64,000 nucleotides of DNA from NCBI GenBank assembly GCA_041746255.1, contig JBGTHM010000005.1, forward strand, positions 79,025-143,024. Reading direction: 5' to 3'. Each line of letters starts with the position of its first letter. Position 1 is the first letter of the stretch. Made by a program: the position numbers and the translations under genes. Positions 19,974 to 64,000 of the stretch are shown one piece after another. The DNA is from Fibrobacteria bacterium. GTDB lineage: Bacteria; Fibrobacterota; Fibrobacteria; UBA11236. The notes below the pieces were generated by a model that worked only from the letters and a program-made list of their open reading frames with translations, had not been told where the DNA came from and did not search any database.

Positions 19974-20111
19974 AATACCCCTTTCAAGGGTGTTCGATAC
20001 TCACAAATGGCATATCCGCCGTAAAAATAAATTAGTTTTATCCCGAAAGCCGTTTCTTCCTATTCGCCCAGTCTCACTGGCGAGAGGGAATTTTTACACC
20101 ATCGGGACGGA

Positions 20112-44771: not shown

Positions 44772-45266
44772 TTAATCGGGCTTGGGGGCGTCGGGGAACA
44801 GCGAGTCGATTTGATCGGCCAATTGCTGCCCATGGGTGACGTCGGGCATCATGTCTTCCATCTCGTTTTCCCTGACCATTTGCAGGGCTTCTCCCAATTT
44901 AACCTTGGCTTGACCCGCCACCATTTTGACCAGGCCGAGATTGGTACGATCATCAAATATCAGTACCATGATCACATCTTCATCGACAAGCGATATGTGA
45001 ATATTCTCCTTTTCCCCTTGATGGAACATCATGGAGAACTCCGACTCGCCGATAAGGGCCGCGATAGCCTTGGTGGACGCGAAGGTTCCCGCGGCCAAAG
45101 CGGCCAAGCTGGTCACGTCGAAACGGGGATTGAAACCGACCTGGGCGATGAGGTTTCCGTCCTTGTTGATGAGCAACACATAGCTGGAGGCGCTCTCGGT
45201 GATGAGATGGGAAAGGATCTTATTCAGCCTTTCCACGTCCTCCTTGAAGAGTACGAAATCTCCCAT
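44772..45266 (-). CDS. mglB: MglB-type Roadblock/LC7 GTPase-activating protein
   Basis: LINKDG, SLAALAAG, LIGESEF..MFHQG, FDDRTNLGLV; acidic C-terminal QIDSLF. Confidence 0.92.
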   Translation of the reverse strand: MGDFVLFKEDVERLNKILSHLITESASSYVLLINKDGNLIAQVGFNPRFDVTSLAALAAGTFASTKAIAALIGESEFSMMFHQGEKENIHISLVDEDVIMVLIFDDRTNLGLVKMVAGQAKVKLGEALQMVRENEMEDMMPDVTHGQQLADQIDSLFPDAPKPD

Positions 45267-45269
45267 CGC

Positions 45270-46991
45270 CTATTTCTCTTTTCCGAACAGCCCGCCGAAC
45301 AGGCCCTTCTTCTTTTCGGAAGGAAGGGGGATGCGGCGCGTCTTGAAATCTCCCTGGCGTTGGTCTTCGTAGGTCGACACGATGCCGCTTTGATCGGATC
45401 GCGGTGGGGGCTGAATAAAAGGAGAGGGTCGCGGCTGCTGTTCCGGCGGGGGATAATTCCCCTGCTGACCGCCGCCTGGACCGAATGGATTGGGATTGTC
45501 CTGCCGATTTTGCGGATTACCCTGCCCGGGTTGGGGACTGCCGAATGGAGACGGATTGAACCCGGCATTGTTTTGACGATCCATGGTCGGTAAGGCAGGG
45601 CCTCCCGGTCCGGCCGGGGGAAATTTTGGAGGAAACCCTCCCGGGCCAGGGCCAGGGGGTTGACCGCCGGGGGATCCAAAAGGCGAGCCCTGCGGGGCTT
45701 GCGGTGGATACGGCCGTTGCGGTGCGGAACCTCCGAAGGGATTTTGCGGTGGCGAACCAAAGCCTCCCTGTTGCGGGGGAGAACCGAATCCTCCCTGTTG
45801 CGGCTGGGACCCGAACCCGCCTTGTTGGGGTGCGGAACCGAAACCATCTTGCTGCGGTGCGGAACCGAATCCGCCTGTTTGCGGTGGAGATCCGAAACCT
45901 CCCGGGGGACCTCCCGGAGCCGGACGCGGAGGCATGCCACCCGATCCGCCTGGATTGCCAAATCCTTCTACGAAGGGGGCGACGGGAATATTCGGATTCT
46001 GCCCGGAAAACCCTCCCGGCGGAGCAGGGGGTCGATTTCCCATTCCCGGATTCAAAAACGGTGAACCGGGCTGTGGCGGCGGAGCTGCGAAGGGATTGGA
46101 GGCCGGTTGCTGGCCACCGGGGGAACCGGAATGCCCCCCTTGGAGAAAGGGATTGGGCGACTGTTGCGAAGCGGGCTTAGGGGGTGCAGGAAAGCCGCTG
46201 TTTTGGGCAAAACCACCCTGGGCGGGAGCGCCGAATCCCGCTTGTCCCGGAAAAGATTGGCCGCCTTGCTGCGGAAAACCGGATTGCGGCGGCATGGCCT
46301 GCGGAGCCGGCCTGGCCGGTGGACTTTGTGGTGCGGAGGTTGGCGCCGGACGGCTTTGTCCCGGGCGCATTGCCGGTGGACGGCGGGTTCCGCCCTGGTA
46401 TCCCGCGTACTTGGCGTTGAACCTGTCTATGACGGACTTGCCGATGGCTTTCAAAGTCGTGAAGACGCCGACACCCGTTGAAGCCACCGCTTCGAAGTAA
46501 GGCGATTGGTATTTGTTCAGAAAACTGCTGAGTTCCTCCACCGACATCACGTTAGGCAAATCACGCTTGTTGAACTGCAATACCATGGGAATAGTATCGA
46601 GAGAGTGACCGTATTCCCGAAGGTTCTCCTCAAGATTGGCGAAACTTTCCAGGTTCTCCTGCAGCTTATCGGCTTGCGAATCCGCAACGAACACCACTCC
46701 ATCCACACCGCGCAGCACCAATTTGCGTGTGGCATTGTAATAAACCTGTCCTGGTACGGTATAGAGCTGGAATTTGGTGGAAAAGCCTTTGATGGAACCC
46801 AGATCAAGGGGGAGGAAATCGAAAAACAGGGTGCGATCGGTTTCCGTTGCGAGCGATACCATTTCGCTCTTTTCCTTGTTGGGAACCTTACGGTGGATGA
46901 TCTGCAGATTGGTGGTCTTCCCGCTTAAACCGGGCCCATAATAGACAATCTTGCAGCTTATTTCTCGGGTAGCGTAATTAATCGATGCCAC
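45270..46991 (-). CDS. mglA: MglA small GTPase with long low-complexity C-terminal extension
   Basis: KIVYYGPGLSGKTTN, TETDRTLFFDFLP, YTVPGQV, NKRD; then ~370 aa P/G/Q/F-rich sequence and KKKGLFGGLFGKEK. Confidence 0.95.
   Translation of the reverse strand: MASINYATREISCKIVYYGPGLSGKTTNLQIIHRKVPNKEKSEMVSLATETDRTLFFDFLPLDLGSIKGFSTKFQLYTVPGQVYYNATRKLVLRGVDGVVFVADSQADKLQENLESFANLEENLREYGHSLDTIPMVLQFNKRDLPNVMSVEELSSFLNKYQSPYFEAVASTGVGVFTTLKAIGKSVIDRFNAKYAGYQGGTRRPPAMRPGQSRPAPTSAPQSPPARPAPQAMPPQSGFPQQGGQSFPGQAGFGAPAQGGFAQNSGFPAPPKPASQQSPNPFLQGGHSGSPGGQQPASNPFAAPPPQPGSPFLNPGMGNRPPAPPGGFSGQNPNIPVAPFVEGFGNPGGSGGMPPRPAPGGPPGGFGSPPQTGGFGSAPQQDGFGSAPQQGGFGSQPQQGGFGSPPQQGGFGSPPQNPFGGSAPQRPYPPQAPQGSPFGSPGGQPPGPGPGGFPPKFPPAGPGGPALPTMDRQNNAGFNPSPFGSPQPGQGNPQNRQDNPNPFGPGGGQQGNYPPPEQQPRPSPFIQPPPRSDQSGIVSTYEDQRQGDFKTRRIPLPSEKKKGLFGGLFGKEK
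45744..45902 (-). repeat. Six 27-bp tandem coding repeats (GGFGSxPQQ)
   Basis: Imperfect 27-nt period; DNA differences are mostly synonymous. Confidence 0.9.
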
Positions 46992-47019
46992 AGCGTTATA
47001 CCTCGTTTGCCAAATGCAA

Positions 47020-47355
47020 TTATTTGATTAGCGGCGCTACCTGCGCGATTTCGACACGTATCAATCCGGTATTAGCCTGACTTTCGGCCATTACCACCAG
47101 ATACCCCAATTCCACGGCCTGTACAAAAAACTTTCCCTCGCTCGCTTCGATCATGGTCTGGATGAGTTTCCCCGATTGGGAGGCCGCGATTATCTTATCG
47201 GCCATTTGTTGCGCCGAAACGATGAGCGCACCAATAAACTCCGAGGGAACGGGAGTTCGGAACAGGGAGACGATTTCTATCCCGTCCGCGCTTACCACGC
47301 TCGAACCCCTGATTCCCTTTATCTGATTAAGTCTTTCTAATATACTTGATATCAT
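47020..47355 (-). CDS. Roadblock/LC7 protein (MglC-like)
   Basis: GIRGSSVVSADG, G.L.Q..IE...G, ANTGLIR. Confidence 0.88.
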   Translation of the reverse strand: MISSILERLNQIKGIRGSSVVSADGIEIVSLFRTPVPSEFIGALIVSAQQMADKIIAASQSGKLIQTMIEASEGKFFVQAVELGYLVVMAESQANTGLIRVEIAQVAPLIK

Positions 47356-47361
47356 CGGATT

Positions 47362-47793
47362 TCAGCCTTTGGCATATCCCTTCGCCTGCAGAAGTTGCGC
47401 GACAGCCTGTGCGCCGCGCTCGATTCTCAACTTAAATAATTCATAGCTACCTTTTGTCCCCGCAATCATGAGAAAAAAGCGGCAGCCTGCATCCAAATTT
47501 ATGATCTGGTAGAACTTATTATCGCTAAATACGATCTGACTTTCCAGGGCTCCGAACCCTAAGTCCTTGAATTGCCTCAAATTGGCCAGATAGCGGTCTA
47601 AAAAATAGGGCGATTCAATGAGCATGCTTTCCTGCGTATTCTCTCCCATGGCAACCACCAAGCATTCCTGGCTGTACACCACGGCCCCGTCCATGCCGTT
47701 TACCAGGCTTAAATAGCCCAGACAGGTATCCAGATCGTGGGAGTCGACCATATTGGCCGCTCCCCCGGTAGCGGGTGAATTCGGATTAGACAT
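47362..47793 (-). CDS. Divergent Roadblock/LC7-like protein
   Basis: VNGMDGAVVYSQECLVV, LGFGALES, FLMIAG; alpha-beta-beta-alpha-beta-beta-beta-alpha pattern. Confidence 0.65.
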   Translation of the reverse strand: MSNPNSPATGGAANMVDSHDLDTCLGYLSLVNGMDGAVVYSQECLVVAMGENTQESMLIESPYFLDRYLANLRQFKDLGFGALESQIVFSDNKFYQIINLDAGCRFFLMIAGTKGSYELFKLRIERGAQAVAQLLQAKGYAKG

Positions 47794-48643
47794 GGGAAGA
47801 TTCCGTTCCGGGAAGGGAGGTAGCTGCCTGGGTGCGCTCACGAAAGATTTTTTCCAGTCGCACGAGCGAAAGCTGCGCTTTTTGCAGATTCTCGGATATC
47901 AAAGCAACGCCATACTCTCCCCGGAACAAGCTGAAAAGCGTGAAACGTTCGAATTGCAAGACAATCCGATGAATGCCTCCGCCTTCCAAGTCCCACACCG
48001 CGGTGGATAAATCACCGGGTAAAATTTTATCCAGAACGTCAATCAATCCGTCAAGGTTTTCAGAAATACCGGCCTTCCGCCTGACCCCCGTTTTCTGGTT
48101 CCAACCGAAAAATTCCAGCGTTCCGGCCTCGTCCAAAAGCTGTCGGTACGCTTCGGGATCCAGCGGATCTTCCGAGGAGTGGGATGGCCCCTTGTCCAAG
48201 GCGTCGACAGGATTTTCCGTAGGCGAAGCGGCCGGGGAGATTACTTCAGAAACAGCGGAAGGGGTAGCGGGGGCAGCCTCCGAACGCGAGTTTTGATACT
48301 CCTCCCAAATCACCGCCTGTAACAAAGAGAGGTAACTGGCTTGATTCGGGTCGACTCTAAGCCGATGTAACAGCTGCTCTTTGGGTTCGTCGTACCGGCC
48401 CGACCGGGTTTGCATGAAAACTTCCATGCAGAACAATACCTCTTGCATTCCGGGTTCGGTTCGGGTCGGCAAGCCCGCCAATACGTGACGCGCCAAATCG
48501 ATTTGGCCCGATTTAATCTGGGTATAGGCGTAAGCGAGAGTGCTGGAGGCCTGCAACCGGTTGCGGCAAACGGGGTTGTCATAGACGGTTTCGGCGACGG
48601 TCGCAACGCGGACCGCGGATATTCCCGGTTCCTTTACAGTCAT
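47786..48643 (-). CDS. TPR-like N-terminus, linker and divergent Roadblock-like C-terminus
   Basis: Helical repeats ending RVDPNQ; Pro/Ser/Ala linker; LEGGGIHRIVLQFE...GVALIS strand pattern. Confidence 0.6.
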   Translation of the reverse strand: MTVKEPGISAVRVATVAETVYDNPVCRNRLQASSTLAYAYTQIKSGQIDLARHVLAGLPTRTEPGMQEVLFCMEVFMQTRSGRYDEPKEQLLHRLRVDPNQASYLSLLQAVIWEEYQNSRSEAAPATPSAVSEVISPAASPTENPVDALDKGPSHSSEDPLDPEAYRQLLDEAGTLEFFGWNQKTGVRRKAGISENLDGLIDVLDKILPGDLSTAVWDLEGGGIHRIVLQFERFTLFSLFRGEYGVALISENLQKAQLSLVRLEKIFRERTQAATSLPGTESSHV

Positions 48644-49701
48644 TTTATCGTGAATTCTCCCGTCTCATACTTCTCATAGACAAAGTACCTTCCCCCGCGC
48701 TTTTTAAGTTCTTCTCTTGTCAATATTTTTTCCTTTTCCATTTCCAGCAAATCTTCGGGAAGCCTATCCCGCCGGGCCGCGAAATCGACCACGAATATTT
48801 CCACGTTTTCGGCCTGCAACCGCTGATGGATAACGGCCGAGTAATCCCCCGCTCCATCAGTGGCCAGAAAGCTCATGGCCGCGAATCGGAAAAGCAAAGT
48901 CATCAGAAAAATAAGCGCCGCGGTACCCAGTAGCAGCGCGGTTTTCTGATCTTTTTCGGATTGGACCGAAACCGGCAGTTTGGTTTCGTTTCCGGGCAGC
49001 GGCGCGTCCTCTGCCAGGATATGCCCGCTGTTCCACAACTGGGCGAGTATCTCATAGAGCCGGAAAGATCCGAAGGGGAGTTCCTTTTCCAATTTCAGCA
49101 AATTCTTTTCGCCGTCCAGAATCTCAAGCACCCATTGTTCATAGCCCGTGACTTCCGATTCGAGCGGCCTGCCCGTTGGCTTGAACACCATTTCTTCATG
49201 AGGCAGAATTTCCTTCAGCCGACCCCATTCATCAATGCGCCGCATTCCCTCCATGCAAGCGAAGTCGGTGGAAATATGCAAGGGCGCGCCCGGAGTCGCT
49301 TTTTGCTGGGCATCGAAGGCGTATTCTCCATCGGTCCAAGCGAACAGGTCGCAGACCATGTCCTCGGCGGCAGTCGAGAGCCAGGATTCCTTTTCCTCCT
49401 CGCTGAAATACCCTTTGGCCGAGAGTGTCGCCATCAAGGAACGGTTCATGCTTTCGGACAATTCACGCATTTGCAGAAAGTCCTTACGCTCAATACGCCC
49501 CGACTCCACCAACATATCCTGGATTTTGGTTTCGGGAGTTTTGTTGCCGACACGTACTCCTGTCACGTTACCTTGAGAAATAAAGATTTCAGCTTTCTCG
49601 CGGTTGCGACTCAGTCTAAGCACGCCGGACTTCCGCTGTTGCATCAGCAATTGCAGAATGTCCGGCAAGGAGAAATCGTCCAATCCTCCAGCCAGAATCA
49701 T
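48640..49701 (-). CDS. DUF4388 (PatA N-terminal-like) membrane-anchored protein
   Basis: GGLDDFSLPDILQLL..QRKSGVL, LFAWTDGEYAF, MEGMRRIDEW; one TM near the C-terminus. Confidence 0.88.
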   Translation of the reverse strand: MILAGGLDDFSLPDILQLLMQQRKSGVLRLSRNREKAEIFISQGNVTGVRVGNKTPETKIQDMLVESGRIERKDFLQMRELSESMNRSLMATLSAKGYFSEEEKESWLSTAAEDMVCDLFAWTDGEYAFDAQQKATPGAPLHISTDFACMEGMRRIDEWGRLKEILPHEEMVFKPTGRPLESEVTGYEQWVLEILDGEKNLLKLEKELPFGSFRLYEILAQLWNSGHILAEDAPLPGNETKLPVSVQSEKDQKTALLLGTAALIFLMTLLFRFAAMSFLATDGAGDYSAVIHQRLQAENVEIFVVDFAARRDRLPEDLLEMEKEKILTREELKKRGGRYFVYEKYETGEFTIK

Positions 49702-51854
49702 GCGAATACTCCTTCCTGCGTTTGCAGGCGGGGCGCCACGGAGAGCTTGCTCACTTTCAGGAGAAGCCTTAAGATAAAAAAGAGGTATAAGGCAAGCAGG
49801 GGAAGCCATAGCATCCATGCCAGCGGGCCCAGCACGAAATCAGGGTACTCCATGATGTGACTCGTCATTCCATAGAGTTGCGAGACGAGAAAACAGGTGA
49901 TAAACAGACAAAGAAAGCGGGCCCGGCCCTTTCCGGCGTAAACCTCTCCGGCCCCGGGAAAAACCGCGTTCAATCCATGGTGCAGCAACACTTCCGCAAC
50001 TTGCCCCCGGGATTTAAGATGTGAAGTAAGTTCAATGCGTAACTTGGCATCGCTTACTCCCGAGACGGTTTTGAAGCAGTCTACGCAATGCAAACCTTTG
50101 CGACACTGCCGGCACATCGTGCGGCCACAAATCTTGCATCCGAAAAGGGTACGGCCTTGCACATGCACCGAGTAATTGTGATAGCGGATAAACAAAAAGA
50201 GAAGGGATAGTCCCAAGCCCCCGTAATACAGCCATGGCGGGTAGGACGCGAGCCCGCTGCGTACCGGAGCCGGCAGAATTTCCAGGCGCTTCAATCCGAC
50301 ATAGGCGTCGCTCCAGAACATGCCGGGCCTGGGCATTACGTCCATGGTACGCCTCTGCACGGGAAGCCGGCTGAAAAGCCTGTCATTATCCTGGAGAAAA
50401 GCAGTCACCCGCAAGGCGTCAACCATACCTGCCCGGTCCAGTAGTTTCTTATGTTCCGAAGAATTGTTGGCGAATAATTCCATCTGACTCATGTTGAACC
50501 AGGTTTCCACATAACCCGCACCGGCCTGGGTGGCTGAAGAGTAGAATTCCCGTGCTGAGACGAATTCATCTTCCATCAGAGCCAGGTTCCCTTTCTGCAA
50601 GGTTACCAAAGGTTCTTCGGGAGCCAATCGTTCCGCGGCCGAAGCCCAAGCGCGCGCCCGCGAGATATCGCCTTGTTTCTTGTAATAAAGGGAACGGCCC
50701 ATGAAGAGGTAAAGACTGTCCCTTCCCATCCGAGGGGTAAAATCGGCCAACCGCGTTTCTAAATTCTTTTCACTGCCTCGGTTGAACGCGATCTGATAGA
50801 GGCGCATACCGGATTCGGAGTCAAGATGGCGGTATAACGCATGCTCGCCCGCAAGCCAGAGGGGAAGCAGCAAAAGAGCCGCCAGCACGACCTTCAAGAT
50901 CGATTTCTCCGAGAAACCGCAATGCTTCCAGAGTAAAATCACCCCCGCAAGGCTCAGCACCACGAATCCCAAGCCTATTATCCAAAGGCAGCCCACCAAT
51001 ATACCGATCACGGCATATCGGAGAGGCAGTTCCACCTGCCGGGGCAACCTTTCCGCCCAATGATGGGTGATATTGGGGTAGTACCGGATGAAAAGCAACA
51101 ATAGGCATAAAAAAAGGAAAAGGGAAAAGGCGGATCGCATCCATTGGGCTCCGTTGAGAAGCACAAAGAATTGATTGTCATAATAGGACCATAGGCCGAC
51201 GATGTCCTGAATATGGTTCCAGGCCAGACCCATATCCCAATTCCAGGGAGCGTCCCCACCCAACAACAGGGTCAGCGAAAGATAAGGAACCCAGGGGGTC
51301 ATGGGGTCCAAATCCGCCGCGAAAGCCAGACCCGCTTCAGCCTCCCCGAGCCGATCCGCCCGTATATCGTCGCGAACACGGGCCAGGACAACCTTCGCAA
51401 GTTCCGGTACGCGGGTATATCCCCGAATCGCGAGTTCCGCCAGCGTCCTTTTCCGGAAGGGGTCCGCTAAATCCGCGGATACGGTCCCGGAGAGGATGCG
51501 CGCCATTTCAAAACTTTCCGCCCAACCTAACGAGGCGAAGCCGGCCAAAGCCCGGAGGGCAGTGCGACCTTGTCCGGGATCCCATTTTTCAACGGCTAAG
51601 GCATCGGCGAATAACTGCCAGTGCGAGGGATGGGATGCGGAGACGCTACGCAAATTTTCGCGCAGAAGAGGGATTCTGTCATAATCCAACTCCCCCCGGA
51701 ACAGCGCGGAGACGTCCTTGTGATGCATCTGAAAAGCCCATCGGGATTCCAAGGCCTGATGCCAAGCCGGGATAAGTTCTCCTTCCGCATAAGCGTGCGA
51801 AGTCGGAAATACCGATAAAGCGAAAAGGCAAAGATGGATTAGGCGCATGCGCAT
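49698..51854 (-). CDS. Multi-pass TPR membrane protein with Cys-rich zinc-binding motif
   Basis: Signal peptide, TM clusters, TPR stretch, CKICGRTMCRQC...HCVDC, FPGAG. Confidence 0.75.
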   Translation of the reverse strand: MRMRLIHLCLFALSVFPTSHAYAEGELIPAWHQALESRWAFQMHHKDVSALFRGELDYDRIPLLRENLRSVSASHPSHWQLFADALAVEKWDPGQGRTALRALAGFASLGWAESFEMARILSGTVSADLADPFRKRTLAELAIRGYTRVPELAKVVLARVRDDIRADRLGEAEAGLAFAADLDPMTPWVPYLSLTLLLGGDAPWNWDMGLAWNHIQDIVGLWSYYDNQFFVLLNGAQWMRSAFSLFLFLCLLLLFIRYYPNITHHWAERLPRQVELPLRYAVIGILVGCLWIIGLGFVVLSLAGVILLWKHCGFSEKSILKVVLAALLLLPLWLAGEHALYRHLDSESGMRLYQIAFNRGSEKNLETRLADFTPRMGRDSLYLFMGRSLYYKKQGDISRARAWASAAERLAPEEPLVTLQKGNLALMEDEFVSAREFYSSATQAGAGYVETWFNMSQMELFANNSSEHKKLLDRAGMVDALRVTAFLQDNDRLFSRLPVQRRTMDVMPRPGMFWSDAYVGLKRLEILPAPVRSGLASYPPWLYYGGLGLSLLFLFIRYHNYSVHVQGRTLFGCKICGRTMCRQCRKGLHCVDCFKTVSGVSDAKLRIELTSHLKSRGQVAEVLLHHGLNAVFPGAGEVYAGKGRARFLCLFITCFLVSQLYGMTSHIMEYPDFVLGPLAWMLWLPLLALYLFFILRLLLKVSKLSVAPRLQTQEGVFA

Positions 51855-51882: not shown

Positions 51883-53259
51883 TCAGGGTTTGAGACCGTA
51901 TTTCTCTATTTTCCTATAAAGAGTGGAAATATCCAACCCTAGAATTTTGGCGGCGGTAGGCTTATGCCATTGGTTCTGACTGAGTATCCAGTGGATATAG
52001 GCCTTTTCGATTTCCTGGATATCGGGTGGAGCGCCTGCGAAGGCTATCTCTTCCCCAACGGTTTTACTCCCCCCTCCGGAAACCAGCGCCCTTGCGTCGG
52101 ATGCCACGGCTCGCGGCGCATCCATCTCGATGGCTTCAATATAACCTCCGGGGCTGTAGGCGATAGCCCGCTCCACGGTGTTCTCCAATTGGCGCACATT
52201 GCCGGGCCAATGATACGCAGCGATAGAGGCAAGGACCTCGGGGGAGAAGGATTTTAACCCTCGCGTCTTTTTTTCCAGGAAGTAGTTGGCCAGGAACACC
52301 GAGTCCTCCCCCCTTTCGGCCAAGGAGGGCATGTGAACCCGTAAAACATTCAGGCGGTAATAAAGATCTTCGCGGAAACGTCCCGCGCTTACCGCCGACT
52401 CCAAATCCACATTGGTAGCCGCCAATACCCGTACGTCGATACGAAAGGATTGGGTGCCCCCTACCGGAGTAACTTCTCTTTCTTGCAGAACCCGCAAAAG
52501 CTTGACCTGGGTATGCTGGGGCATTTCCCCTATCTCGTCCAGAAACAAGGTGCCTTTGTCGGCCACGGTAAAAAGGCCTTCTTTCTCAGCATGCGCCGAT
52601 GTGAAAGCGCCTTTCACATGTCCGAAAAGTTCCGATTCCAATAGATTCTCGGATAAGGCCCCGCAATTAACCACCACGAAAGGCTTGTCAACCCGATCCG
52701 ATTTCTGGTGGATAAGCTTGGCCACCAACTCTTTTCCCGTGCCGCTTTCCCCGGTAATCAGAACCGTGCTGTCGGAAGCGGCCAAAGTATCCGTTATCCC
52801 GCGCAACTTGATCATTTCCTCGGAATTGCCGATGAGCTCGATGGTCTTCCGGCCTTTCAGCGCTTTTTTCAGCTCGAGGTTTTCCGCTCGCAAAGTACGA
52901 TTCGAAACCGCTTTTTCTACCACCTTGGCCAAAAGAACCATGTCGAAGGGTTTGGAAAGAAAATCGTACGCCCCCAACTTGATAGCCTCGACAGCTCGTT
53001 CAATAGTCCCGAAAGCCGTCATCACCACCACCGGCAGGTCGGGAAACCGGGCTGCTAAAATCCGCACCAGGTCCAGTCCCGAATCTTGTCCCAGCGATAA
53101 ATCGACTAAGGCCAAATGGGGTTCGAAGCCGTCCAGCAGGCGCTTGGCATCCTCGAGGTTGTGCGCGGTTGACACTTCGAAGCCTTTCCGTTGGAAGAAC
53201 ACTTCCAACAGGCTGCAGAGCGAAACTTCGTCATCTACGATGAGCACTTTGGGCATCAT
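51883..53259 (-). CDS. Sigma-54 dependent response regulator (NtrC family)
   Basis: REC; GESGTGKE; ESELFGH.KGAFT; FREDLYYRLNV; WPGNVRQL; HTH. Confidence 0.96.
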   Translation of the reverse strand: MMPKVLIVDDEVSLCSLLEVFFQRKGFEVSTAHNLEDAKRLLDGFEPHLALVDLSLGQDSGLDLVRILAARFPDLPVVVMTAFGTIERAVEAIKLGAYDFLSKPFDMVLLAKVVEKAVSNRTLRAENLELKKALKGRKTIELIGNSEEMIKLRGITDTLAASDSTVLITGESGTGKELVAKLIHQKSDRVDKPFVVVNCGALSENLLESELFGHVKGAFTSAHAEKEGLFTVADKGTLFLDEIGEMPQHTQVKLLRVLQEREVTPVGGTQSFRIDVRVLAATNVDLESAVSAGRFREDLYYRLNVLRVHMPSLAERGEDSVFLANYFLEKKTRGLKSFSPEVLASIAAYHWPGNVRQLENTVERAIAYSPGGYIEAIEMDAPRAVASDARALVSGGGSKTVGEEIAFAGAPPDIQEIEKAYIHWILSQNQWHKPTAAKILGLDISTLYRKIEKYGLKP

Positions 53260-53349
53260 GCCGATTAATTCCAATCCTGCGGCCACCCCACCTGGTGGCC
53301 ATTGGGAATCGCATGTCATTTTATGATAAGGGGATAGCGGAAATGAAGC

Positions 53350-56980: not shown

Positions 56981-57559
56981 TCAAGCCGAATCGGGTTTCA
57001 TTGCAGTTTTATCCGCAGGCGAGACGACTTTCCAATAGATATAATCCAGCCAGGCTCGTTGGGGCTGCCGGAAGCAAAGCTTGTTCACCAGATTTCGGGG
57101 TGCAGCTTTGGTGAGCCGGGGTACAAAGGGTTGATGGGTCATGAAAATCTCCCCTTGTTTCCACCGCTTATTGCCTTTCCTGTTGTTACAGGCCATGCAG
57201 GCCGTTACCAGATTTTTCCATTCGGTGGTTCCGCCCTTGGAGCGGGGTATGACATGATCGATGGTGAATGCGGAAAGGCTTATCGACTGGCCGCAATAGA
57301 CGCAACGCCCGTTGTCACGCGCATGGAGGTTCCGTCTGGTAAGCGGCAGGCTGGAGATGAAATTCTTGGGAAAGGTTTTGTAATCGAGACATTGTACCAC
57401 GGCGGGAATATGCATGGAAAAACGCGGGGAATGGATGATTTTATCCTCGTATTCGGCCAGCACGACCGCCCTACCCAAAGCCCATAGGGTAACGGCCTTT
57501 TTCCAGGACACGATGTCCATGGGGATACCGGACATATTAAGAGCCAACGATTCAACCAT
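56981..57559 (-). CDS. HNH endonuclease (McrA-like, stand-alone)
   Basis: RD...CVYCG, TIDHVIPRSKGG..EW.NLVTAC..CN..KG. Confidence 0.92.
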   Translation of the reverse strand: MVESLALNMSGIPMDIVSWKKAVTLWALGRAVVLAEYEDKIIHSPRFSMHIPAVVQCLDYKTFPKNFISSLPLTRRNLHARDNGRCVYCGQSISLSAFTIDHVIPRSKGGTTEWKNLVTACMACNNRKGNKRWKQGEIFMTHQPFVPRLTKAAPRNLVNKLCFRQPQRAWLDYIYWKVVSPADKTAMKPDSA

Positions 57560-58214: not shown

Positions 58215-59828
58215 CTAGAAGCGCCCGTCCCAGAATTGCGAGATTTGCTCGGAATCACCCACGACTTTCACTCCGTATTTTCCCCAGGGTAAGTGCAAAC
58301 GCGGCACCGTAATCGTATTCAGTCCCTTCCGCCCCGAAAATCTTTCCAGGTAGAGTACTTCTCCGTTCAAACCCACTATCTGAAAAGTGGCGGCTTGTTC
58401 ACTCGCCAGGAAAAACCGCGATACCGTTGTCATGGAATGGCGCTCAAAGGAAACGGCCCGTCTTTTTGACCCGAACCTCGCAAGCGCTACTGTATTTCCC
58501 ACGGATACGGGAATCTTACCGGCAACCTCGGTTTTGGGAATCAAGGAATGCAACGCGATTTCACCGGCGTCAGGCGTTCCTTGCCCGGGAGTATATTCCA
58601 GCTTAATGGTTGTGGATTTTCCGGGAATGACCAGAATAGGAAGGGTGACACCAGAAACAGCAATTCCTTTGGGAGTAACGATCTTCTCAAGGTATACGGC
58701 CTGATTGCCGGAGGCGATTCCCAGGGTCAAAGCAAACATCTGCTTTTCGGATTTGCGGCTTGCATCAATTATAATTTCCGCCTCTTCCCACTTTAATTTC
58801 CCGGGTAGGATGGGAGTGCCTTTCGGAGCAGTTACCTCGCCCGGAAAAAACGCCACCTGCGAAGCCAGTTTCGCACCACCGCGAGTCGGCGAGCCTGCGG
58901 CGACATAAAGCCCCCCGTTGGAAACAATTCCCTGGCTTCCATGGCGAGAAGAAGTCATCGGTTGCAGGGTACGCCACTTGTGGGTATCGATATTAAGCGC
59001 CTCATTTTCCGAGTGCGTCCCGGTGGTGCTCATGGACTCGCCCCCGGCCACTATGATTTCCTTGGCCAATAAGCCCACCACCGCCGCGGCGCGTGGTGTG
59101 GGAAGATTATCGGCGGCGGGAAGCGTCGTCCATTTTTTCGTGGAGATATCGTAAACGTCGACTTCAGGAATGGTATTGGCGAATACGCTACCCTTGTCCT
59201 GACTGCTGCGGCGGCCGGCCAATGCATAGATTTTATTACCTGCAAGCACCGCATGAAAATGGTCCCGGGCCCTGGGCGCATCCGTCAAAACCGTCCAGGT
59301 ATTGGTGGTCGGATCCCAACTATCGAACCAAGGCTTCCATCCGGATTGGTGTCCACGGTTATTTCCCGCTACGATATAGATTCGGTCATCATGCACGACG
59401 ACGCCCGTCGATCCGCGTTGACGGTCTTTAGGAACCTCCGGCCCCTTAACCCACTTATCCTGAAGGGGATCATACAGATAAACATTCGGGAGGGGAGGCT
59501 CAGCCGGGTAATTCCCGGTTAGTGCGCAAACGGCGAGTATCAATCCGTGGTATTCCGTTGCCTGGAAGTGGTGGATTTTGGTCGGCGCCGCCGCCTTTAC
59601 CGACCACTTGCCGGTTTTATAATCGAATTGATTGATATTATCTGTTTCGCGACCTCCCATCAAAAAGAAATGCTCTCCCGCCTGGACATAGGAGCATTCG
59701 TGCCGGGCAATGGGATCATTGTCATGAGATATGTTTTTCCAGGTACCCTGTGCGGCGACTAAGGACAATAGGCAGGGAATTGATGTGATTATTTTTACGG
59801 GGGTAAAAACCTGCGGCACTTGATGCAT
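58215..59828 (-). CDS. Secreted Kelch-repeat protein with Ig-like region and T9SS-like CTD
   Basis: GG..YD...W Kelch repeats; C-terminal IVGLNG...GKYGV. Confidence 0.85.
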   Translation of the reverse strand: MHQVPQVFTPVKIITSIPCLLSLVAAQGTWKNISHDNDPIARHECSYVQAGEHFFLMGGRETDNINQFDYKTGKWSVKAAAPTKIHHFQATEYHGLILAVCALTGNYPAEPPLPNVYLYDPLQDKWVKGPEVPKDRQRGSTGVVVHDDRIYIVAGNNRGHQSGWKPWFDSWDPTTNTWTVLTDAPRARDHFHAVLAGNKIYALAGRRSSQDKGSVFANTIPEVDVYDISTKKWTTLPAADNLPTPRAAAVVGLLAKEIIVAGGESMSTTGTHSENEALNIDTHKWRTLQPMTSSRHGSQGIVSNGGLYVAAGSPTRGGAKLASQVAFFPGEVTAPKGTPILPGKLKWEEAEIIIDASRKSEKQMFALTLGIASGNQAVYLEKIVTPKGIAVSGVTLPILVIPGKSTTIKLEYTPGQGTPDAGEIALHSLIPKTEVAGKIPVSVGNTVALARFGSKRRAVSFERHSMTTVSRFFLASEQAATFQIVGLNGEVLYLERFSGRKGLNTITVPRLHLPWGKYGVKVVGDSEQISQFWDGRF

Positions 59829-59975: not shown

Positions 59976-61136
59976 CTAATTCGAAATTAGCACTTTTTGC
60001 ACTTGTTCTTTTCCGCTTTGAGCGTACCGTATCAAATGCAACCCCTCGGCTTCCACGGGGATGAAGCTGTCATTCAGGATACCGGTCTTGCTGAGAACAA
60101 CTTTTCCATTAAGGTTAATCACCTTGAGTTGAATCGGCGCCAGACCGGCATTCACTTTGATTCCTCCTAATTCCGGAACAACGACGAGACCATTTCCGGC
60201 AGTACCGTTTGGTGAATTCAATAATGTATTGGAACCAGCACCCTTGCTGCTGGACCACACCTTGAAATAATCGAAATAGATGTACTCCGTTTTCTTGGAC
60301 TGGAAATTCGGATCATCCGCCGAGCCGCCCCGGTAGGTGTGTACAGCAAGACCATTCACTTTTACATCTTTACCCGGAAGGCGGAACTGGACATTCGTTC
60401 TGCTCAGGGTTTTCTTTCCGTCAACATACATTTCCAGGATACCGTCGCTTTTTCCCGGGGTATTCATTTTGACATACTGCTTAATCGTATACCACTGTCC
60501 CTTCTTCACGGGTTTGAAAAATTCGATATCTTCTCCCCATTTTCTGGTGACTTTTCCGCTGGAATTTATGCGTTCCGGAAGATAAGCATAAACCACCAGA
60601 TTATCATTCCTTCTCCACATCAGGCGAACGCTGAAAGCACTATGAACGGTGGTCTTATTGGTAGTGCCTCCCCATGGCAGTGATCCATCAGGATCGACGG
60701 AACCCACCAAGCCCGGAAGCTTCCCGCCATAACAGAAGAACCAATTCGGATCGAACTTGATGCGGTACTCCATTATCGCTTCTTCTGAAGGGGGAATGTT
60801 TTTTACGAACAGGACGCCGGAATTGCCCCCACCCGCTTTATTGGCGGGGTAGTGCGTCCTAAAACTTTGCTCACCGGCCTTAGTTTTGTGGGTCCAAGTG
60901 TTTCCGGGGCTGTCCAGGCCCCGTATCTCACCCGTACCTCTATTATTTATCGCACCAAAATCCTGCCTTGCAGCCGCTTCGTCATAATCCTGAAAATCTC
61001 CGGTCCGATTGTCGAAATTGACATCTATGACAAGATTTTCCGGTTGTGCGAAACCGAAGCCGGCAAAAAGCAGGAACGCTATATTCAGTGCCTGGTATTT
61101 CAAAATCGTTTCCTTGCGAACAGAAAATTTGAACAC
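59976..61136 (-). CDS. Secreted PL14-like polysaccharide lyase with T9SS-like CTD
   Basis: GGKLPGL, FSVRLMWR, YAY, VKMNTPG..DG.L...VDG, GGS; CTD INLNGK...GLHLI. Confidence 0.85.
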   Translation of the reverse strand: MFKFSVRKETILKYQALNIAFLLFAGFGFAQPENLVIDVNFDNRTGDFQDYDEAAARQDFGAINNRGTGEIRGLDSPGNTWTHKTKAGEQSFRTHYPANKAGGGNSGVLFVKNIPPSEEAIMEYRIKFDPNWFFCYGGKLPGLVGSVDPDGSLPWGGTTNKTTVHSAFSVRLMWRRNDNLVVYAYLPERINSSGKVTRKWGEDIEFFKPVKKGQWYTIKQYVKMNTPGKSDGILEMYVDGKKTLSRTNVQFRLPGKDVKVNGLAVHTYRGGSADDPNFQSKKTEYIYFDYFKVWSSSKGAGSNTLLNSPNGTAGNGLVVVPELGGIKVNAGLAPIQLKVINLNGKVVLSKTGILNDSFIPVEAEGLHLIRYAQSGKEQVQKVLISN

Positions 61137-61146
61137 TTCCCCTCCC

Positions 61147-62217
61147 CTAATTCCCTAACATCACTTTTTTAGTGACTTCTGTTCTGTTTTGCCTGAATCG
61201 TAGGAGGTATAGGCCTTTTGATTGGATAGGAACAAAACTGTTTATAAACACCCCCGTCCTGCTGTAGGCGACTTCGCCCCTGAGGTCAATCACTTCCAAT
61301 CGTACCGGATCCTTCCCGGCGTTTACTTTGAATCCGCCTGACTGGGGGGTTATCGTGAACGCATTTCCGCTTATCCCGCCGCCGTGGTTGAATATGCTGG
61401 ATTGTGGCGTTCCAGTCTTGCCTTCAAGAGGATCCAATACGGATTCCAAAGTGGTTCCCACTCTCATTTCATCCAAGTCCACGGTGATATTGAAGGCTCT
61501 GGATGTTTCGTTATAGGCCCCCCATTTGAAATACATCAACCCTTCTTCATGGGTGCGGAAAGGCGCTTGCTGTTGATTATTTTGATTGCGAACATTTTGT
61601 TTTTTTCCGTTTATCCAGACTTCCACGAATCCTTCTTTATCGGTTTTCGCAAACTTGAACCCCAGGACTATGTCCATCCATGTGTCTTCGTTCATCGGGT
61701 GATTGGTAAAGGTTACTTTTCTGGGGCTGACAGACTCACTTGCATTTTTTCCCGGGGTTATCCCCTGTACATTCATGTTCTTTTTAGCAGCGTCAAAACC
61801 AATTGATACCGGATGGTTTTGCAGCAAATTCCCCTGGGTTTTCAATTGGAAAATGGCAAAACCTCCATTGGGTTTTTTGCTTCCGGCCACATTTACTTTT
61901 ACCCGCCACCCGACGAAAACCCTGTCGCCGTTGTTGATTTTGTAATTGTTGACTTCACCGGTAGTTCTGGCGAACTCCGTCCGCTTTGATCTTGCGGGCT
62001 TGTTTATCCTCCAAACATTTCCATGAACCGGGTCCTGTACCGTGGTTACGGTACCGTCTTCACCTGGCTCCCGATTCAAATTGTAAAAGCTGTCCTTCCA
62101 AGGCCTTTCTGGATCGCCATACCATAAAACATTGGCGTCAGAAAAGGTGAAGGAGAAAAGGAGAATCACCAGAAGTTTAAAAGGTGAAATTATTGCAACA
62201 TTGTTTTGTTTATTCAT
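61147..62217 (-). CDS. Secreted polysaccharide lyase (heparin lyase I/PL20-like jelly roll) with T9SS-like CTD
   Basis: RTE, IFQLK, G.VEVWING, YFKWGAY; CTD IDLRGE...GLYLL...KK. Confidence 0.78.
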   Translation of the reverse strand: MNKQNNVAIISPFKLLVILLFSFTFSDANVLWYGDPERPWKDSFYNLNREPGEDGTVTTVQDPVHGNVWRINKPARSKRTEFARTTGEVNNYKINNGDRVFVGWRVKVNVAGSKKPNGGFAIFQLKTQGNLLQNHPVSIGFDAAKKNMNVQGITPGKNASESVSPRKVTFTNHPMNEDTWMDIVLGFKFAKTDKEGFVEVWINGKKQNVRNQNNQQQAPFRTHEEGLMYFKWGAYNETSRAFNITVDLDEMRVGTTLESVLDPLEGKTGTPQSSIFNHGGGISGNAFTITPQSGGFKVNAGKDPVRLEVIDLRGEVAYSRTGVFINSFVPIQSKGLYLLRFRQNRTEVTKKVMLGN

Positions 62218-62318
62218 GGTTCGCTTCGAATTGCAAAAGGTTTTTCCCCTGCCATTAATAGGGTGGCACATCCCTATATTAGGGTTGATCTTTTTGAATG
62301 CTGCTTGTGCTTGGCTGG

Positions 62319-62338
62319 ATTTGTTCCCAAGTGGAAAC
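62319..62338. promoter_or_regulatory. Copy 1 of a 20-bp upstream motif (near-palindrome)
   Basis: ATTTGTTCCCAAGTGGAAAC, identical to 63084-63103. Confidence 0.65.
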
Positions 62339-62365
62339 GGTATGCATGAAAAACCCGAAAATACC

Positions 62366-62827
62366 CTATAAATTCTCTAAATTCTCAAGAGAAGACCTGC
62401 CTAGACGCCGGTACCAGCAGTTGGGTTTTCCAGTCATTACCGGTTGTATTAAGCCGGCCTGCGTCTTGCGATCTTCCTGATACCACCTTGACCATTTATT
62501 AAAATCATCTCTTTGAATTACGCTATTACCTAGGGTATGAATGTTTATATCATTCTCGATCGATAAGGTCGAATAGGGACCCTTCTCAACCATTTCCTTT
62601 TTCACGCTTATTTTCGAACCGGTTATGCCTTTAGTAGAATTTGAATTAATGGGTATGAGCTTATTATCAAGGATGGATTTCCAGGTAGGGTCAGCCCCAT
62701 CTTGTGTGTATAAATTCATACCATTGGCGAATTTCTGTGTATATGATTGCTGAGCCCATGCCAGATTACTTGATGAACACAGGATGGTTATTGTTATCAG
62801 AATAGATTTAAAGAATCGTCTATTCAT
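62366..62827 (-). pseudogene. Probably truncated secreted protein
   Basis: Good signal peptide, AT-rich; sequence character changes after RWYQED; no CTD unlike its neighbours. Confidence 0.45.
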
Positions 62828-63083
62828 TTGAACCCCATTTCGTAACCGTTAAATTTGGTTTTAACACGAAACTTATTTTTGATAGCGATATCCTCGATCA
62901 GGCTGAAAATGTGGTTAATGAAGAGAAAATCGCGATGCCGACCGACAAGGGTGGCTGAAATTTGTAACCCGAAGACGGTAGAAGATTTATTGAGACCGGA
63001 ACTACTATTACCATCCCCATAAACCTATCGGTTACCGATTATAATAATGGGGTTGTTTTTTTGATGTTCCTGATTTTGGTCGA

Positions 63084-63103
63084 ATTTGTTCCCAAGTGGA
63101 AAC
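63084..63103. promoter_or_regulatory. Copy 2 of the 20-bp upstream motif
   Basis: Identical 20-mer; followed on the minus strand by an A-tract, CAACCC and TATAAT. Confidence 0.65.
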
Positions 63104-63579
63104 AATCACTGAGCCCGTTTTCGATCTATTGCCAATTGATTTACACGGACGCTATACGGGCGACGGCGGCGGAACGAGGGACCGTTCCACTTTCTACCCA
63201 CCACACTTAATCTATGAGATTTTCTTCAGCCGGGGCTATACCTTAGAGGTACAATGAAGCGATGAATCATGTTTTGGATTCGCGGAAATAAGGTAAGGGA
63301 AATAGCCCCTCCCTTTCTTATCACTTTACTTTTCTTTGGACCCCTACCATACCCATACCATGGTTGCGGGAAAGGCATGAGCGGGAATCCCAGGAAAAAG
63401 GCCAAACTCTGCTTCCTACCATGGCCTTTCCTCAGTTCAGGCTGCTAAAGCTTCAAAAAGAGGATTAATCCTTTTTTCATCCTTTAGTACGATTCCTTAG
63501 CCTTCTTTTAAGGCTTATTATTTGTTCCGTATCCGAAATCTGGAACTACTATAAGTTCCTAATCCACGGTCAGGAACTC

Positions 63580-63783
63580 ATGAAATCTTCAATAGTCAAA
63601 GCCCTCGCAATTATGATACCCGTATTCTTTATAGCTGGATGCTCCAGCAAGGACTCCGCCACACCGGCGCCACAGGTAATCAAGGTACAACCCGCTCCCG
63701 CTCCAACTCCCCCTCAATCCAAAGTCCAACTTGAAGGATCCGAAGACGGGTTCAAAGTAAAAATCGAAACTGAATCGAAGTAA
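63580..63783 (+). CDS. Small Pro-rich lipoprotein
   Basis: Lipobox IAG-C; AGGA RBS; 67 aa. Confidence 0.75.
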   Translation: MKSSIVKALAIMIPVFFIAGCSSKDSATPAPQVIKVQPAPAPTPPQSKVQLEGSEDGFKVKIETESK

Positions 63784-63875
63784 AAATCGGCACGGCGACG
63801 ATACCCGGATAAATCGACGAAAGTCGATATTCGGAACAAATCGGACGACTTTATCCAAAACCCCGCCGAACTTAT

Positions 63876-64000
63876 TGCAGAATCCGGTGAAAGTGACCGG
63901 GCGATCCGGTTCAAAGTGACCGACAGCCACCCTTGTCATAGCCGGTCACCATGGACCGGATTTCAACCGATTAGAAGTTACTCATTGCCGGTCACTTTGG
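63876..64000. mobile_element. IS21-family-like terminus (element or MITE continuing beyond the window)
   Basis: Starts with TG; direct repeats ATCCGGT(N)nAAAGTGACCG at 63882 and 63904; inverted copies at 63942 and 63988. Confidence 0.7.

Follow-up and report, generated by a model that had tools for sequence, protein, structure and literature searches.

How is a bacterial Ras-like polarity switch wired to the membrane when its gene is surrounded by genes for several Roadblock-fold proteins, and does such a locus follow the plan of the eukaryotic Ragulator complex? These questions are raised by a seven-gene operon in a Fibrobacteria bacterium (Fibrobacterota; UBA11236; NCBI GenBank assembly GCA_041746255.1), located at positions 44772 to 51854 of a 64,000-nucleotide stretch of contig JBGTHM010000005.1 (positions 79,025 to 143,024 of the forward strand), which we refer to as the window. 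The operon encodes two membrane proteins (G1 and G2), three Roadblock-fold proteins (G3, G4 and G5), the small GTPase MglA and its partner MglB. To our knowledge, MglA/MglB is the model small-GTPase polarity switch of bacteria, and nearly all work on it has been done in Myxococcus, Thermus and Bdellovibrio. In these bacteria, MglA is a soluble protein of 195 amino acids (aa), and MglA-GTP is the active form. The original prediction, made from the DNA letters, had seen a "Ragulator-like stoichiometry" in the four Roadblock proteins of the operon. We consider it fairly likely that the operon encodes an expanded MglA/MglB switch at the inner membrane, equipped with Roadblock adaptors and with PATAN and TPR membrane partners, and that the output of this switch is type IV pili.

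The MglA/MglB core and the tail of MglA

The seven open reading frames (ORFs) are arranged head to tail between 51854 and 44772 in the order G1, G2, G3, G4, G5, mglA and mglB, on the minus strand, as are all features of the module described below, and the tight packing that had been described for them is borne out by their junctions. There are ATGA start/stop overlaps at G1/G2 and at G2/G3, the first of which places the start of G2 at 49701 and not at 49818. G3 and G4 overlap by 8 nucleotides (nt), and the remaining genes are separated by gaps of 6 nt (G4-G5), 28 nt (G5-mglA) and 3 nt (mglA-mglB). The start of G4 is uncertain and may be at 47793, 47841 or 47751.

The GTPase domain of MglA (residues 1-195, with a GTG start; 46407..46991) was compared with the PDB by phmmer and matched Myxococcus xanthus MglA (6h17_A) with an E-value of 2.2e-76 and no gaps over residues 1-190, and the "Gliding protein mglA" chain 3t12_A with an E-value of 1.2e-72. 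The residues R53, T78, G81 and Q82 are invariant in 18 orthologues, and presumably R53 is the intrinsic arginine finger and Q82 the catalytic glutamine. A threonine at position 78 in place of the usual aspartate is a mark of the MglA family (PMC3000849). The Pfam match to Gtr1_RagA covers only residues 14-130 of the G domain and scores below those to Ras and Arf. No second MglA was found in the genome. The last gene of the operon, mglB (44772..45266; 164 aa), encodes the Roadblock-fold GTPase-activating protein (GAP) that is the partner of MglA. It matched Robl_LC7 in Pfam (E 3.6e-11), M. xanthus MglB (6izw_B) over residues 4-159 with the C-terminal segment included (phmmer against the PDB, E 1.8e-25), and the NCBIfam MglB equivalog NF052242 with an E-value of 1.2e-22 and 80.7 bits, which is under the cut-off of 200. 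Judged by their sequences, the GTPase is thus a genuine MglA of the Group-1 Ras-like type, and the last gene encodes a genuine MglB, an orthologue of the Roadblock-fold GAP that acts directly on the G domain. That mglA precedes mglB had been noted from the window, and the same order was seen in every related locus in which both genes were found (26 of 29 loci).

With a total length of 573 aa, this MglA departs from the single-domain form of about 195 aa that is typical of Group 1 MglA. The difference is due to a disordered, low-complexity tail of 378 aa (residues 196-573; 45273..46406), which is rich in proline (24%), glycine (20%) and glutamine (12%). All of the 30 MglA orthologues examined are tailed, with total lengths of 327-777 aa and tails of about 130 to 550 aa that are rich in Pro, Gly, Ala or Gln; for comparison, M. 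xanthus MglA is 195 aa long (PMC3000849). The last 45 or so residues are conserved and contain a short acidic/hydrophobic motif, a basic motif containing proline and, often, a terminal hydrophobic motif flanked by lysines. A terminal pattern resembling a membrane-targeting sequence (MTS) was found in 18 of the 30 orthologues, namely all of those from the families f1, f3, f11 and f13-f17, compared with 33 of 1262 background ORFs. The C-terminus of Escherichia coli MinD (K-12 record) fits the same pattern, and residues 256-270 of MinD are its amphipathic membrane-targeting sequence (PMC8155659). We infer from these sequence features that the tail may be a flexible leash ending in a membrane anchor, and the long tail probably binds the membrane. 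Within the tail there is also a tandem repeat of 27 bp in 5.9 copies (45744..45903; Tandem Repeats Finder, score 141), which codes for a nine-residue unit rich in Gly, Phe, Gln and Pro, similar to the low-complexity repeats of phase-separating proteins.

The original prediction further held that no such system had been described in this lineage. Group 1 MglA has been recorded for the Fibrobacteres and an association of PATAN genes with mglA and mglB has been published (PMC4316618), and a long MglA of 313 aa has been tabulated for Fibrobacter succinogenes (PMC3000849), so some description of the lineage does exist. For the operon as such the claim stood: a full-text literature search outside subscription journals and supplements (among the latter, Table S2 of PMC4316618 may list such neighbourhoods) returned no paper that deals with this operon, with an MglA tail that binds membranes or with a Roadblock expansion in the Fibrobacterota.

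Roadblock-fold and membrane proteins of the module

Two of the four proteins that had been called Roadblock proteins, MglB and G5, are recognized as such by Pfam, and these are the only Pfam Roadblock matches in the genome. G5 (47020..47355; 111 aa) is a minimal Roadblock/LC7 protein that matched Robl_LC7 (PF03259) with an E-value of 3.5e-8 and 33.5 bits against a cut-off of 23, and its nearest solved sequences are Asgard Roadblock proteins (7f8m, 1.6e-5; 7yh1, 7e-5), not MglB or MglC. The other two calls are upheld by predicted structures. G4 (47362..47793; 143 aa), which ends in a long C-terminal helix, has no match in Pfam or NCBIfam. Its AlphaFold2 model, built on an alignment of 21 rows, has a predicted local distance difference test score (pLDDT) of 85.7, a predicted template modelling (TM) score of 0.80 and the topology a-b-b-a-b-b-b-a, and the top Foldseek matches in the PDB were the Asgard Roadblock protein 7f8m_D (4e-6), MglB (6hjm, 5e-6) and a LAMTOR chain (5y3a_B, 1.5e-5), with values ranging to 1e-4. 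Eight of 55 G4 homologues carry a precomputed match to PF08923, which we take to be the LAMTOR3/MP1 family, and some are named Roadblock/LC7/MglB by JGI.

G3 (47786..48643; 285 aa) consists of a TPR-like head of seven helices (residues 16-122), a disordered linker (129-155) and a C-terminal domain (163-275), here called G3c, with the same a-b-b-a-b-b-b-a topology (AlphaFold2 model from an alignment of 26 rows, pLDDT 84.3). Pfam gave only a weak TPR_19 match for G3, and no Pfam or NCBIfam match for its C-terminal domain. The best Foldseek match of G3c in the PDB was the Roadblock protein 7yh1_A (1.6e-4), followed by LAMTOR, MglB and MglC (7ct3). The Foldseek TM values to the target were 0.71-0.78 for the G4 and G3c models against solved Roadblock proteins. 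From these models, we confidently predict that both G4 and the C-terminus of G3 adopt Roadblock folds. G3 is a narrow family with 24 representatives among 1.84 billion. The description of the four proteins as paralogues needs a qualification. They share a common fold, but pairwise comparisons of the G3c, G4, G5 and MglB profiles with hhalign gave probabilities below 7% and no significant similarity, and the term therefore rests on fold and not on sequence.

The two membrane proteins are encoded by the first two genes of the seven. G1 (49698..51854; 718 aa) is a multi-pass membrane protein with a signal-like N-terminus, a helical N-domain, membrane helices, a TPR-like region, a six-Cys motif and a C-terminal membrane hairpin of two helices. 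It has five strong hydrophobic segments (residues 238-256, 282-300, 318-336, 647-665 and 681-699), and its matches to TPR_16 and TPR_14 were all below the Pfam cut-off. The six-Cys motif consists of three CxxC units in residues 573-593, and the six cysteines (C573, C576, C581, C584, C590 and C593) are invariant in 18 of 18 orthologues, as are N454, Q457, N490, P498 and R501. A closer view of residues 571-593 gives the invariant arrangement F-x-C-K-x-C ... C-x-x-C ... C-x-x-C, six cysteines in 23 residues with many flanking lysines and arginines, and this block may bind zinc or an iron-sulfur cluster. One G1 homologue carries the JGI name [quoted passage not shown]. Outside the phylum, look-alikes of G1 in the Atlas are TPR membrane proteins of the Myxococcota, Acidobacteriota and others, which we treat as a lead only, and a word-indexed sequence search for G1 returned 10 relatives, none of them named from another phylum.

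G2 (48640..49701; 353 aa) combines a PATAN domain (Pfam DUF4388, PF14332; E 2.2e-26, 92.7 bits against a cut-off of 25) with a single membrane helix, the hydrophobic segment being at residues 294-312 in the numbering of the long ORF, with a C-terminal part of about 80 aa beyond it. Thirteen residues are invariant in 18 orthologues (G5, G26, G44, E113, D114, W122, G125, Y127, F129, E151, R154, D157 and W159). A complex prediction of MglA (residues 1-195, with GTP) and the cytoplasmic part of G2 (residues 1-245), which contains the PATAN domain, from alignments of 18 rows, run with no controls, scored 0.01 and 0.00 against a mark of 0.32 and carries no weight for or against a contact. Two more PATAN/DUF4388 genes are located elsewhere in the genome (G000:C111:1149-1448 and G000:C84:23164-23457).

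Conservation, history and surroundings

The survey of synteny across the Fibrobacterota supported the expectation that the gene set is conserved together. G4 is present in 24 of 41 relatives, and all seven slots occur in the same order in 13 of the 15 loci around G4 from the families f1 to f4, these 13 being from f1, f3 and f4. In the five loci from f4, the slot of G3 is occupied by a gene for a protein of 263-434 aa. The two loci from f2 contain fused genes. One encodes a protein of 411 aa that joins the G3 head, the G3 Roadblock domain and G4, and is followed by G5, and the other encodes a protein of 500 aa that joins the G3 head, G4 and the end of G5. Such fusions provide good indirect evidence that G3, G4 and G5 act in one assembly, beside the membrane proteins and MglA, and they are the strongest evidence of this kind in our analysis. 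In both of these genomes (98% and 87% complete) MglA is present and no MglB was found with the MglB of the window as the query, which hints that G3-G4-G5 can stand in for MglB. In a third locus from f2 (L085, genome G030, 79% complete), G1, G2 and mglA are directly adjacent with no G3-G5 between them and no MglB match in the 3.8 kb downstream, and the tail of its MglA ends in the same type of motif as in the two loci with fused Roadblock genes.

A scan of 296 genomes of the phylum identified MglA in 246, G1 in 109 and G4 in 34. These tallies include genome G021, which is flagged as unpublished and on which no claim depends. G4 is confined to the families f1 (20 of 31 genomes), f2 (1 of 6), f3 (1 of 1) and f4 (11 of 12). 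In 82 of the 109 G1-positive genomes, as counted by eye, the matches to G1 and MglA were on one contig and a few kb apart, and in the remaining ones they were mostly on separate contigs, often in fragmented assemblies. Fourteen further loci, mostly from other families, contained G1-G2-MglA-MglB (seven loci), G1-G2-MglA (one locus) or only MglA-MglB (six loci, three of them from f5), and in the seven loci with four genes there is no space for extra genes between them. From the distribution in the 296 genomes and the gene orders at the loci, the history seems to have been stepwise, starting with a phylum-wide mglA-mglB pair with a tailed MglA, to which G1 and G2 were joined in a four-gene core (G1-G2-MglA-MglB) that later, in f1-f4, received the insertion of G3-G5 between G2 and mglA. 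Since three of the four Roadblock genes were thus inserted late, and in one lineage, the Ragulator-like stoichiometry looks accidental.

The family f5, with its large genera g16 and g15, appears to include the rumen Fibrobacter group, as suggested by the length of its MglA (about 320-345 aa) in comparison with the 313 aa of the F. succinogenes protein (PMC3000849). The three f5 loci (L072:9809-11230, L082:9244-10695 and L083:8218-9674) have a gene for an MglB of 138-139 aa directly downstream of mglA, and the short tails of their MglA proteins (about 135-150 aa) have a conserved motif of another type at their ends, which are not MinD-like. The F. succinogenes MglA was tabulated without an MglB partner, but the table examined only the immediate upstream side (PMC3000849).

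Beyond the phylum, a profile search for G4 returned 93 proteins, and every source name given was Fibrobacterota, Fibrobacteria or Fibrobacteres. A scan of 185,579 species genomes with a single strict motif, which could have missed distant relatives, yielded 22 loci, all in metagenome-assembled genomes of the Fibrobacter group except for one contig of 1.8 kb (L038). On this contig, G4 and MglA are 79% and 98% identical to those of the window, and its filing as an "uncultured Bifidobacteriales bacterium" is probably a binning or labelling error. At the other extreme within the phylum are eight genomes (G005, G008, G010, G016, G018, G020 and G024 of genus g5, and G025) of 1.6-2.7 Mb and 83-100% completeness that had no match for MglA, G1, G4, FlhA or any T2SSE-family ATPase. 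The pattern looks like that of a reduced lineage in which all surface-organelle machinery has been lost together.

Upstream of the module, a gene for an NtrC-type response regulator (51883..53319, minus strand; a receiver domain, a sigma-54 AAA+ domain and a Fis helix-turn-helix; Pfam Sigma54_activat 7e-71, Response_reg 5e-25) ends 28 nt before G1. A strong terminator-like hairpin is located just upstream of it (53378-53354, minus strand), for which reason the transcription unit probably begins at this gene, so that it is probably the first gene of the operon and co-transcribed with G1. In 11 of 15 loci, from families f1 and f4, the regulator gene likewise precedes G1, and it was not found beside the core in the 14 loci (L072-L086) that are mostly from other families. 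It thus also seems to have joined in the part of the phylum to which the window belongs (f1-f4), together with the insertion of G3-G5. Matches to the sigma-54 promoter consensus in the window (25 with at most two mismatches, 26.6 expected) included none that was convincingly placed, and scans of the cluster for sigma-70 promoters and terminators were at or below chance except for the hairpin. Downstream, a gene for a major facilitator superfamily transporter follows 27 nt after mglB and is conserved in none of the related loci, and the flanks of the cluster and of four related loci contained variable housekeeping genes and no conserved functional neighbour.

Elsewhere in the window, the last 4 kb (60000-64000) have a G+C content of 0.43-0.47, down from about 0.53-0.57, and the region may be acquired DNA. 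Two polysaccharide-lyase genes (59976-62271), a gene for a Kelch-repeat protein (58215-59828) and an HNH endonuclease gene (56981-57559) are located in or just before this low-G+C end. Two adjacent hybrid histidine kinases with PAS and receiver domains (18342-22661) and an HDOD-domain protein (9595-11283) have no evident link to the MglA cluster.

Output, alternatives and relation to known systems

In the mechanism that we favor, the run of basic residues and the MinD-like amphipathic end of the tail would hold MglA at the membrane, much as the hypervariable region and the lipid anchor do in the eukaryotic Ras and Rho proteins. G3, G4 and G5 would form one hetero-oligomeric Roadblock assembly that modulates or partly replaces MglB, in the way that MglB is modulated by MglC and RomY in Myxococcus, and G2 and G1 would set the place and the input of the switch. 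Its output would be the spatial control of type IV pili, and the module probably steers a surface organelle of this kind. In Myxococcus, MglA controls pili. The choice of type IV pili rests on several lines of evidence. In Synechocystis, the PATAN domain of PixE contacts both PilC and the N-terminal domain of PilB1, and this domain suffices to switch phototaxis (bioRxiv 10.1101/2021.06.11.447907), PATAN genes have previously been noted near mglA and mglB (PMC4316618), and type IV pilus genes were present in all ten Fibrobacteres genomes of an earlier study and were linked to polymer attachment (PMC4704652). In addition, the profile of presence and absence fits. The genome of the window contains nine T2SSE-family ATPase genes, a PilB-PilT pair among them, all 24 G4-positive relatives have at least five such genes, and all eight relatives without them are also without G4 and MglA. 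MglA has been kept in 119 of the 120 genomes of the genera g16 and g15, and FlhA was found in none of the 120.

Several observations weigh against this interpretation. With regard to the output, no type IV pilus gene was found in the window or adjoining the module in any locus inspected. By family, G1 follows FlhA almost as well as it follows the T2SSE ATPases, and where everything is lacking, the genomes are small (1.6-2.7 Mb), so that the profile does not separate pili from flagella or from genome size. With regard to the tail, the MTS-like pattern was written only after the sequences had been seen, and it is absent from f4, which has the seven-gene form, as well as from f2, f5 and f7. A simple hydrophobic-moment score of the C-termini did not pick out the motif, even in MinD, and was dropped as a measure because it was uninformative even there. 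The charge pattern and the number of helices in G1 disagree on its topology, and the TPR region may face the periplasm. As for the Roadblock assembly, the lack of profile similarity among its members has been mentioned above. The homology of the f4 slot gene to G3 was negative by tblastn, and the profile that matched it itself contained f4 sequences. More generally, the protein contacts within the module are predictions from genes, fusions and fold models.

Could the same parts serve another output, such as a machinery for gliding or secretion, the polar flagellum, or growth or division at the pole? The absence of pilus genes beside the module and the almost equal company that G1 keeps with FlhA and the T2SSE ATPases would fit such an output, as would the finding that flagella are common in the non-Fibrobacter members of the phylum (PMC4704652). 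However, a strict tie to flagella is unlikely, since three genomes (G104, G106 and G107; 94-96% complete) have G1 beside MglA and no FlhA match at E<=1e-30, and since all 14 genomes of the genus g23 have FlhA and none of them has MglA or G1. Moreover, MglA/MglB persist in g16 and g15, where no FlhA was found, and the contacts of PATAN with PilB and PilC are experimental (bioRxiv 10.1101/2021.06.11.447907). We therefore hold another output to be unlikely.

The remaining alternatives concern the Roadblock proteins. If two Roadblock heterodimers formed a membrane-anchored platform similar to the Ragulator, it might tether MglA, act as its exchange factor or receptor, and couple it to G1 as a membrane sensor. 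Four Roadblock folds are encoded in one operon with membrane proteins, G4 and G3c both have LAMTOR chains near the head of their structural matches, the PF08923 matches in eight of 55 G4 homologues are to the presumed LAMTOR3/MP1 family, and the G3-G4(-G5) fusions suggest an association between different Roadblock domains. Against such a platform, three of the four Roadblock genes were inserted late into a core that works with MglB alone, MglB is close in sequence to a GAP that binds the G domain directly, and for G4 the matches to LAMTOR are no better, or are worse, than those to MglB and to Asgard Roadblock proteins. Nor does MglA have the C-terminal Roadblock domain of the Rag GTPases, its tail being of low complexity. 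No LAMTOR1-like subunit was identified among the proteins of the operon, and the count of four is not kept where G3-G5 are fused and MglB was not found. A scaffold of this kind is hence quite improbable in our view. The fusions also bear on the opposite suggestion, that G3, G4 and G5 are separate and mostly homodimeric tuners of the GAP activity of MglB or the localization of MglA. MglC, a Roadblock paralogue, and RomY do act as separate partners of MglB in Myxococcus (PMC4719450, PMC7949163, PMC9481161), MglC (7ct3) is among the structural matches of G3c, and the four families are too divergent to be aligned with one another. Yet joint action is favored by the two relatives in which G3, G4 and part of G5 have become one polypeptide, as well as by the strict co-occurrence and the fixed order in 13 of 15 loci, and we give little credence to independent modulators.

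A bolder version of the expanded MglA/MglB switch can also be formulated, in which MglA is leashed by the disordered linker and its MinD-like end, in which the PATAN and TPR membrane proteins serve as the dock for a hetero-oligomeric Roadblock platform where the GTPase is read out, and in which the fused G3-G4-G5 regulates the GTPase where MglB was not found. Whether by convergence or by ancient origin, such a system would be the bacterial equivalent of eukaryotic small GTPases, which act at membranes by means of a hypervariable tail together with platforms of the Roadblock/longin kind, the Ragulator among them. We put this forward tentatively and regard it, on balance, as doubtful. What makes the module attractive for further work is that a whole phylum has a tailed MglA, most with a predicted membrane-binding end, which is wired to two conserved membrane proteins, and that one lineage has added three further Roadblock proteins. 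If our interpretation is correct, the module would be a compact system in which one could test what Roadblock platforms and membrane tethering do to a Ras-like switch of bacteria, and it would provide a candidate set of direct partners for the poorly understood PATAN domain. It would also offer a handle on the control of adhesion or twitching in polymer-degrading Fibrobacterota on solid substrates, and the relatives with fused Roadblock genes and no detected MglB would be a natural experiment on the need for MglB.

Among the known systems, the actinobacterial conservons (CvnA-D) and the Mfp conservon resemble the module in that one operon encodes a membrane-associated sensor together with a Ras-like GTPase and a Roadblock protein. 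They differ in that neither a histidine-kinase-like CvnA nor a DUF742 CvnC was found by Pfam among the nine proteins scanned here, and in that the GTPase is a Group 1 MglA and not of the conservon group. With the MinD-type C-terminal membrane-targeting helices, the likeness is confined to the last 12 or so residues of MglA (in 18 of 30), which fit the MinD pattern and are preceded by lysine or arginine; the motif ends a disordered linker of 200-550 aa on a Ras-like GTPase, whereas that of MinD is placed directly on a ParA/MinD ATPase. The neighbourhoods of PATAN and MglA/MglB genes (Makarova et al. 2006, cited in PMC4316618; Wuichet and Sogaard-Andersen 2015) are similar in that a PATAN gene is located beside mglA and mglB. 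Those papers report the association as an occasional one, whereas in the Fibrobacterota it is a fixed, phylum-wide operon whose PATAN protein is membrane-anchored and accompanied by a conserved membrane protein of the TPR/six-Cys type. Neither the tail nor the Roadblock expansion is reported in the available parts of PMC4316618.

The closest relative is the polarity module of M. xanthus (MglA, MglB, MglC, RomR/RomX and RomY), with which the operon shares a Group-1 MglA with Arg53, Thr78 and Gln82, an MglB including its C-terminal segment, additional Roadblock-fold partners and the probable control of a polar or surface organelle. The order of the genes is mglB-mglA in M. xanthus, whereas it is mglA-mglB in the Fibrobacterota, where MglA has a disordered tail of 378 aa with a putative membrane-binding end, the operon contains three extra Roadblock genes, none of which is recognizable as MglC by sequence, and two dedicated membrane proteins (PATAN-TM and TPR/six-Cys) belong to the module. 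The Ragulator-Rag system (LAMTOR1-5, RagA/C), finally, also brings several different Roadblock-fold subunits together with a small GTPase at the membrane, and its LAMTOR chains are structural matches of G4 and G3c. However, the Rag GTPases have a C-terminal Roadblock domain of their own, whereas the tail of MglA is P/G/Q-rich, of low complexity and without a domain match. No candidate was identified for a lipid-anchored, disordered subunit that wraps the Roadblock dimers as LAMTOR1 does, and the links to the membrane are here transmembrane proteins and the MglA tail. Furthermore, one of the four Roadblock proteins in the Fibrobacterota is a GAP orthologue, and the set of four, which a late insertion brought about, has not been retained in f2. 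The module is thus at most "somewhat like" the Ragulator, and it is a member not of the Ragulator system but of the MglA/MglB switch family.

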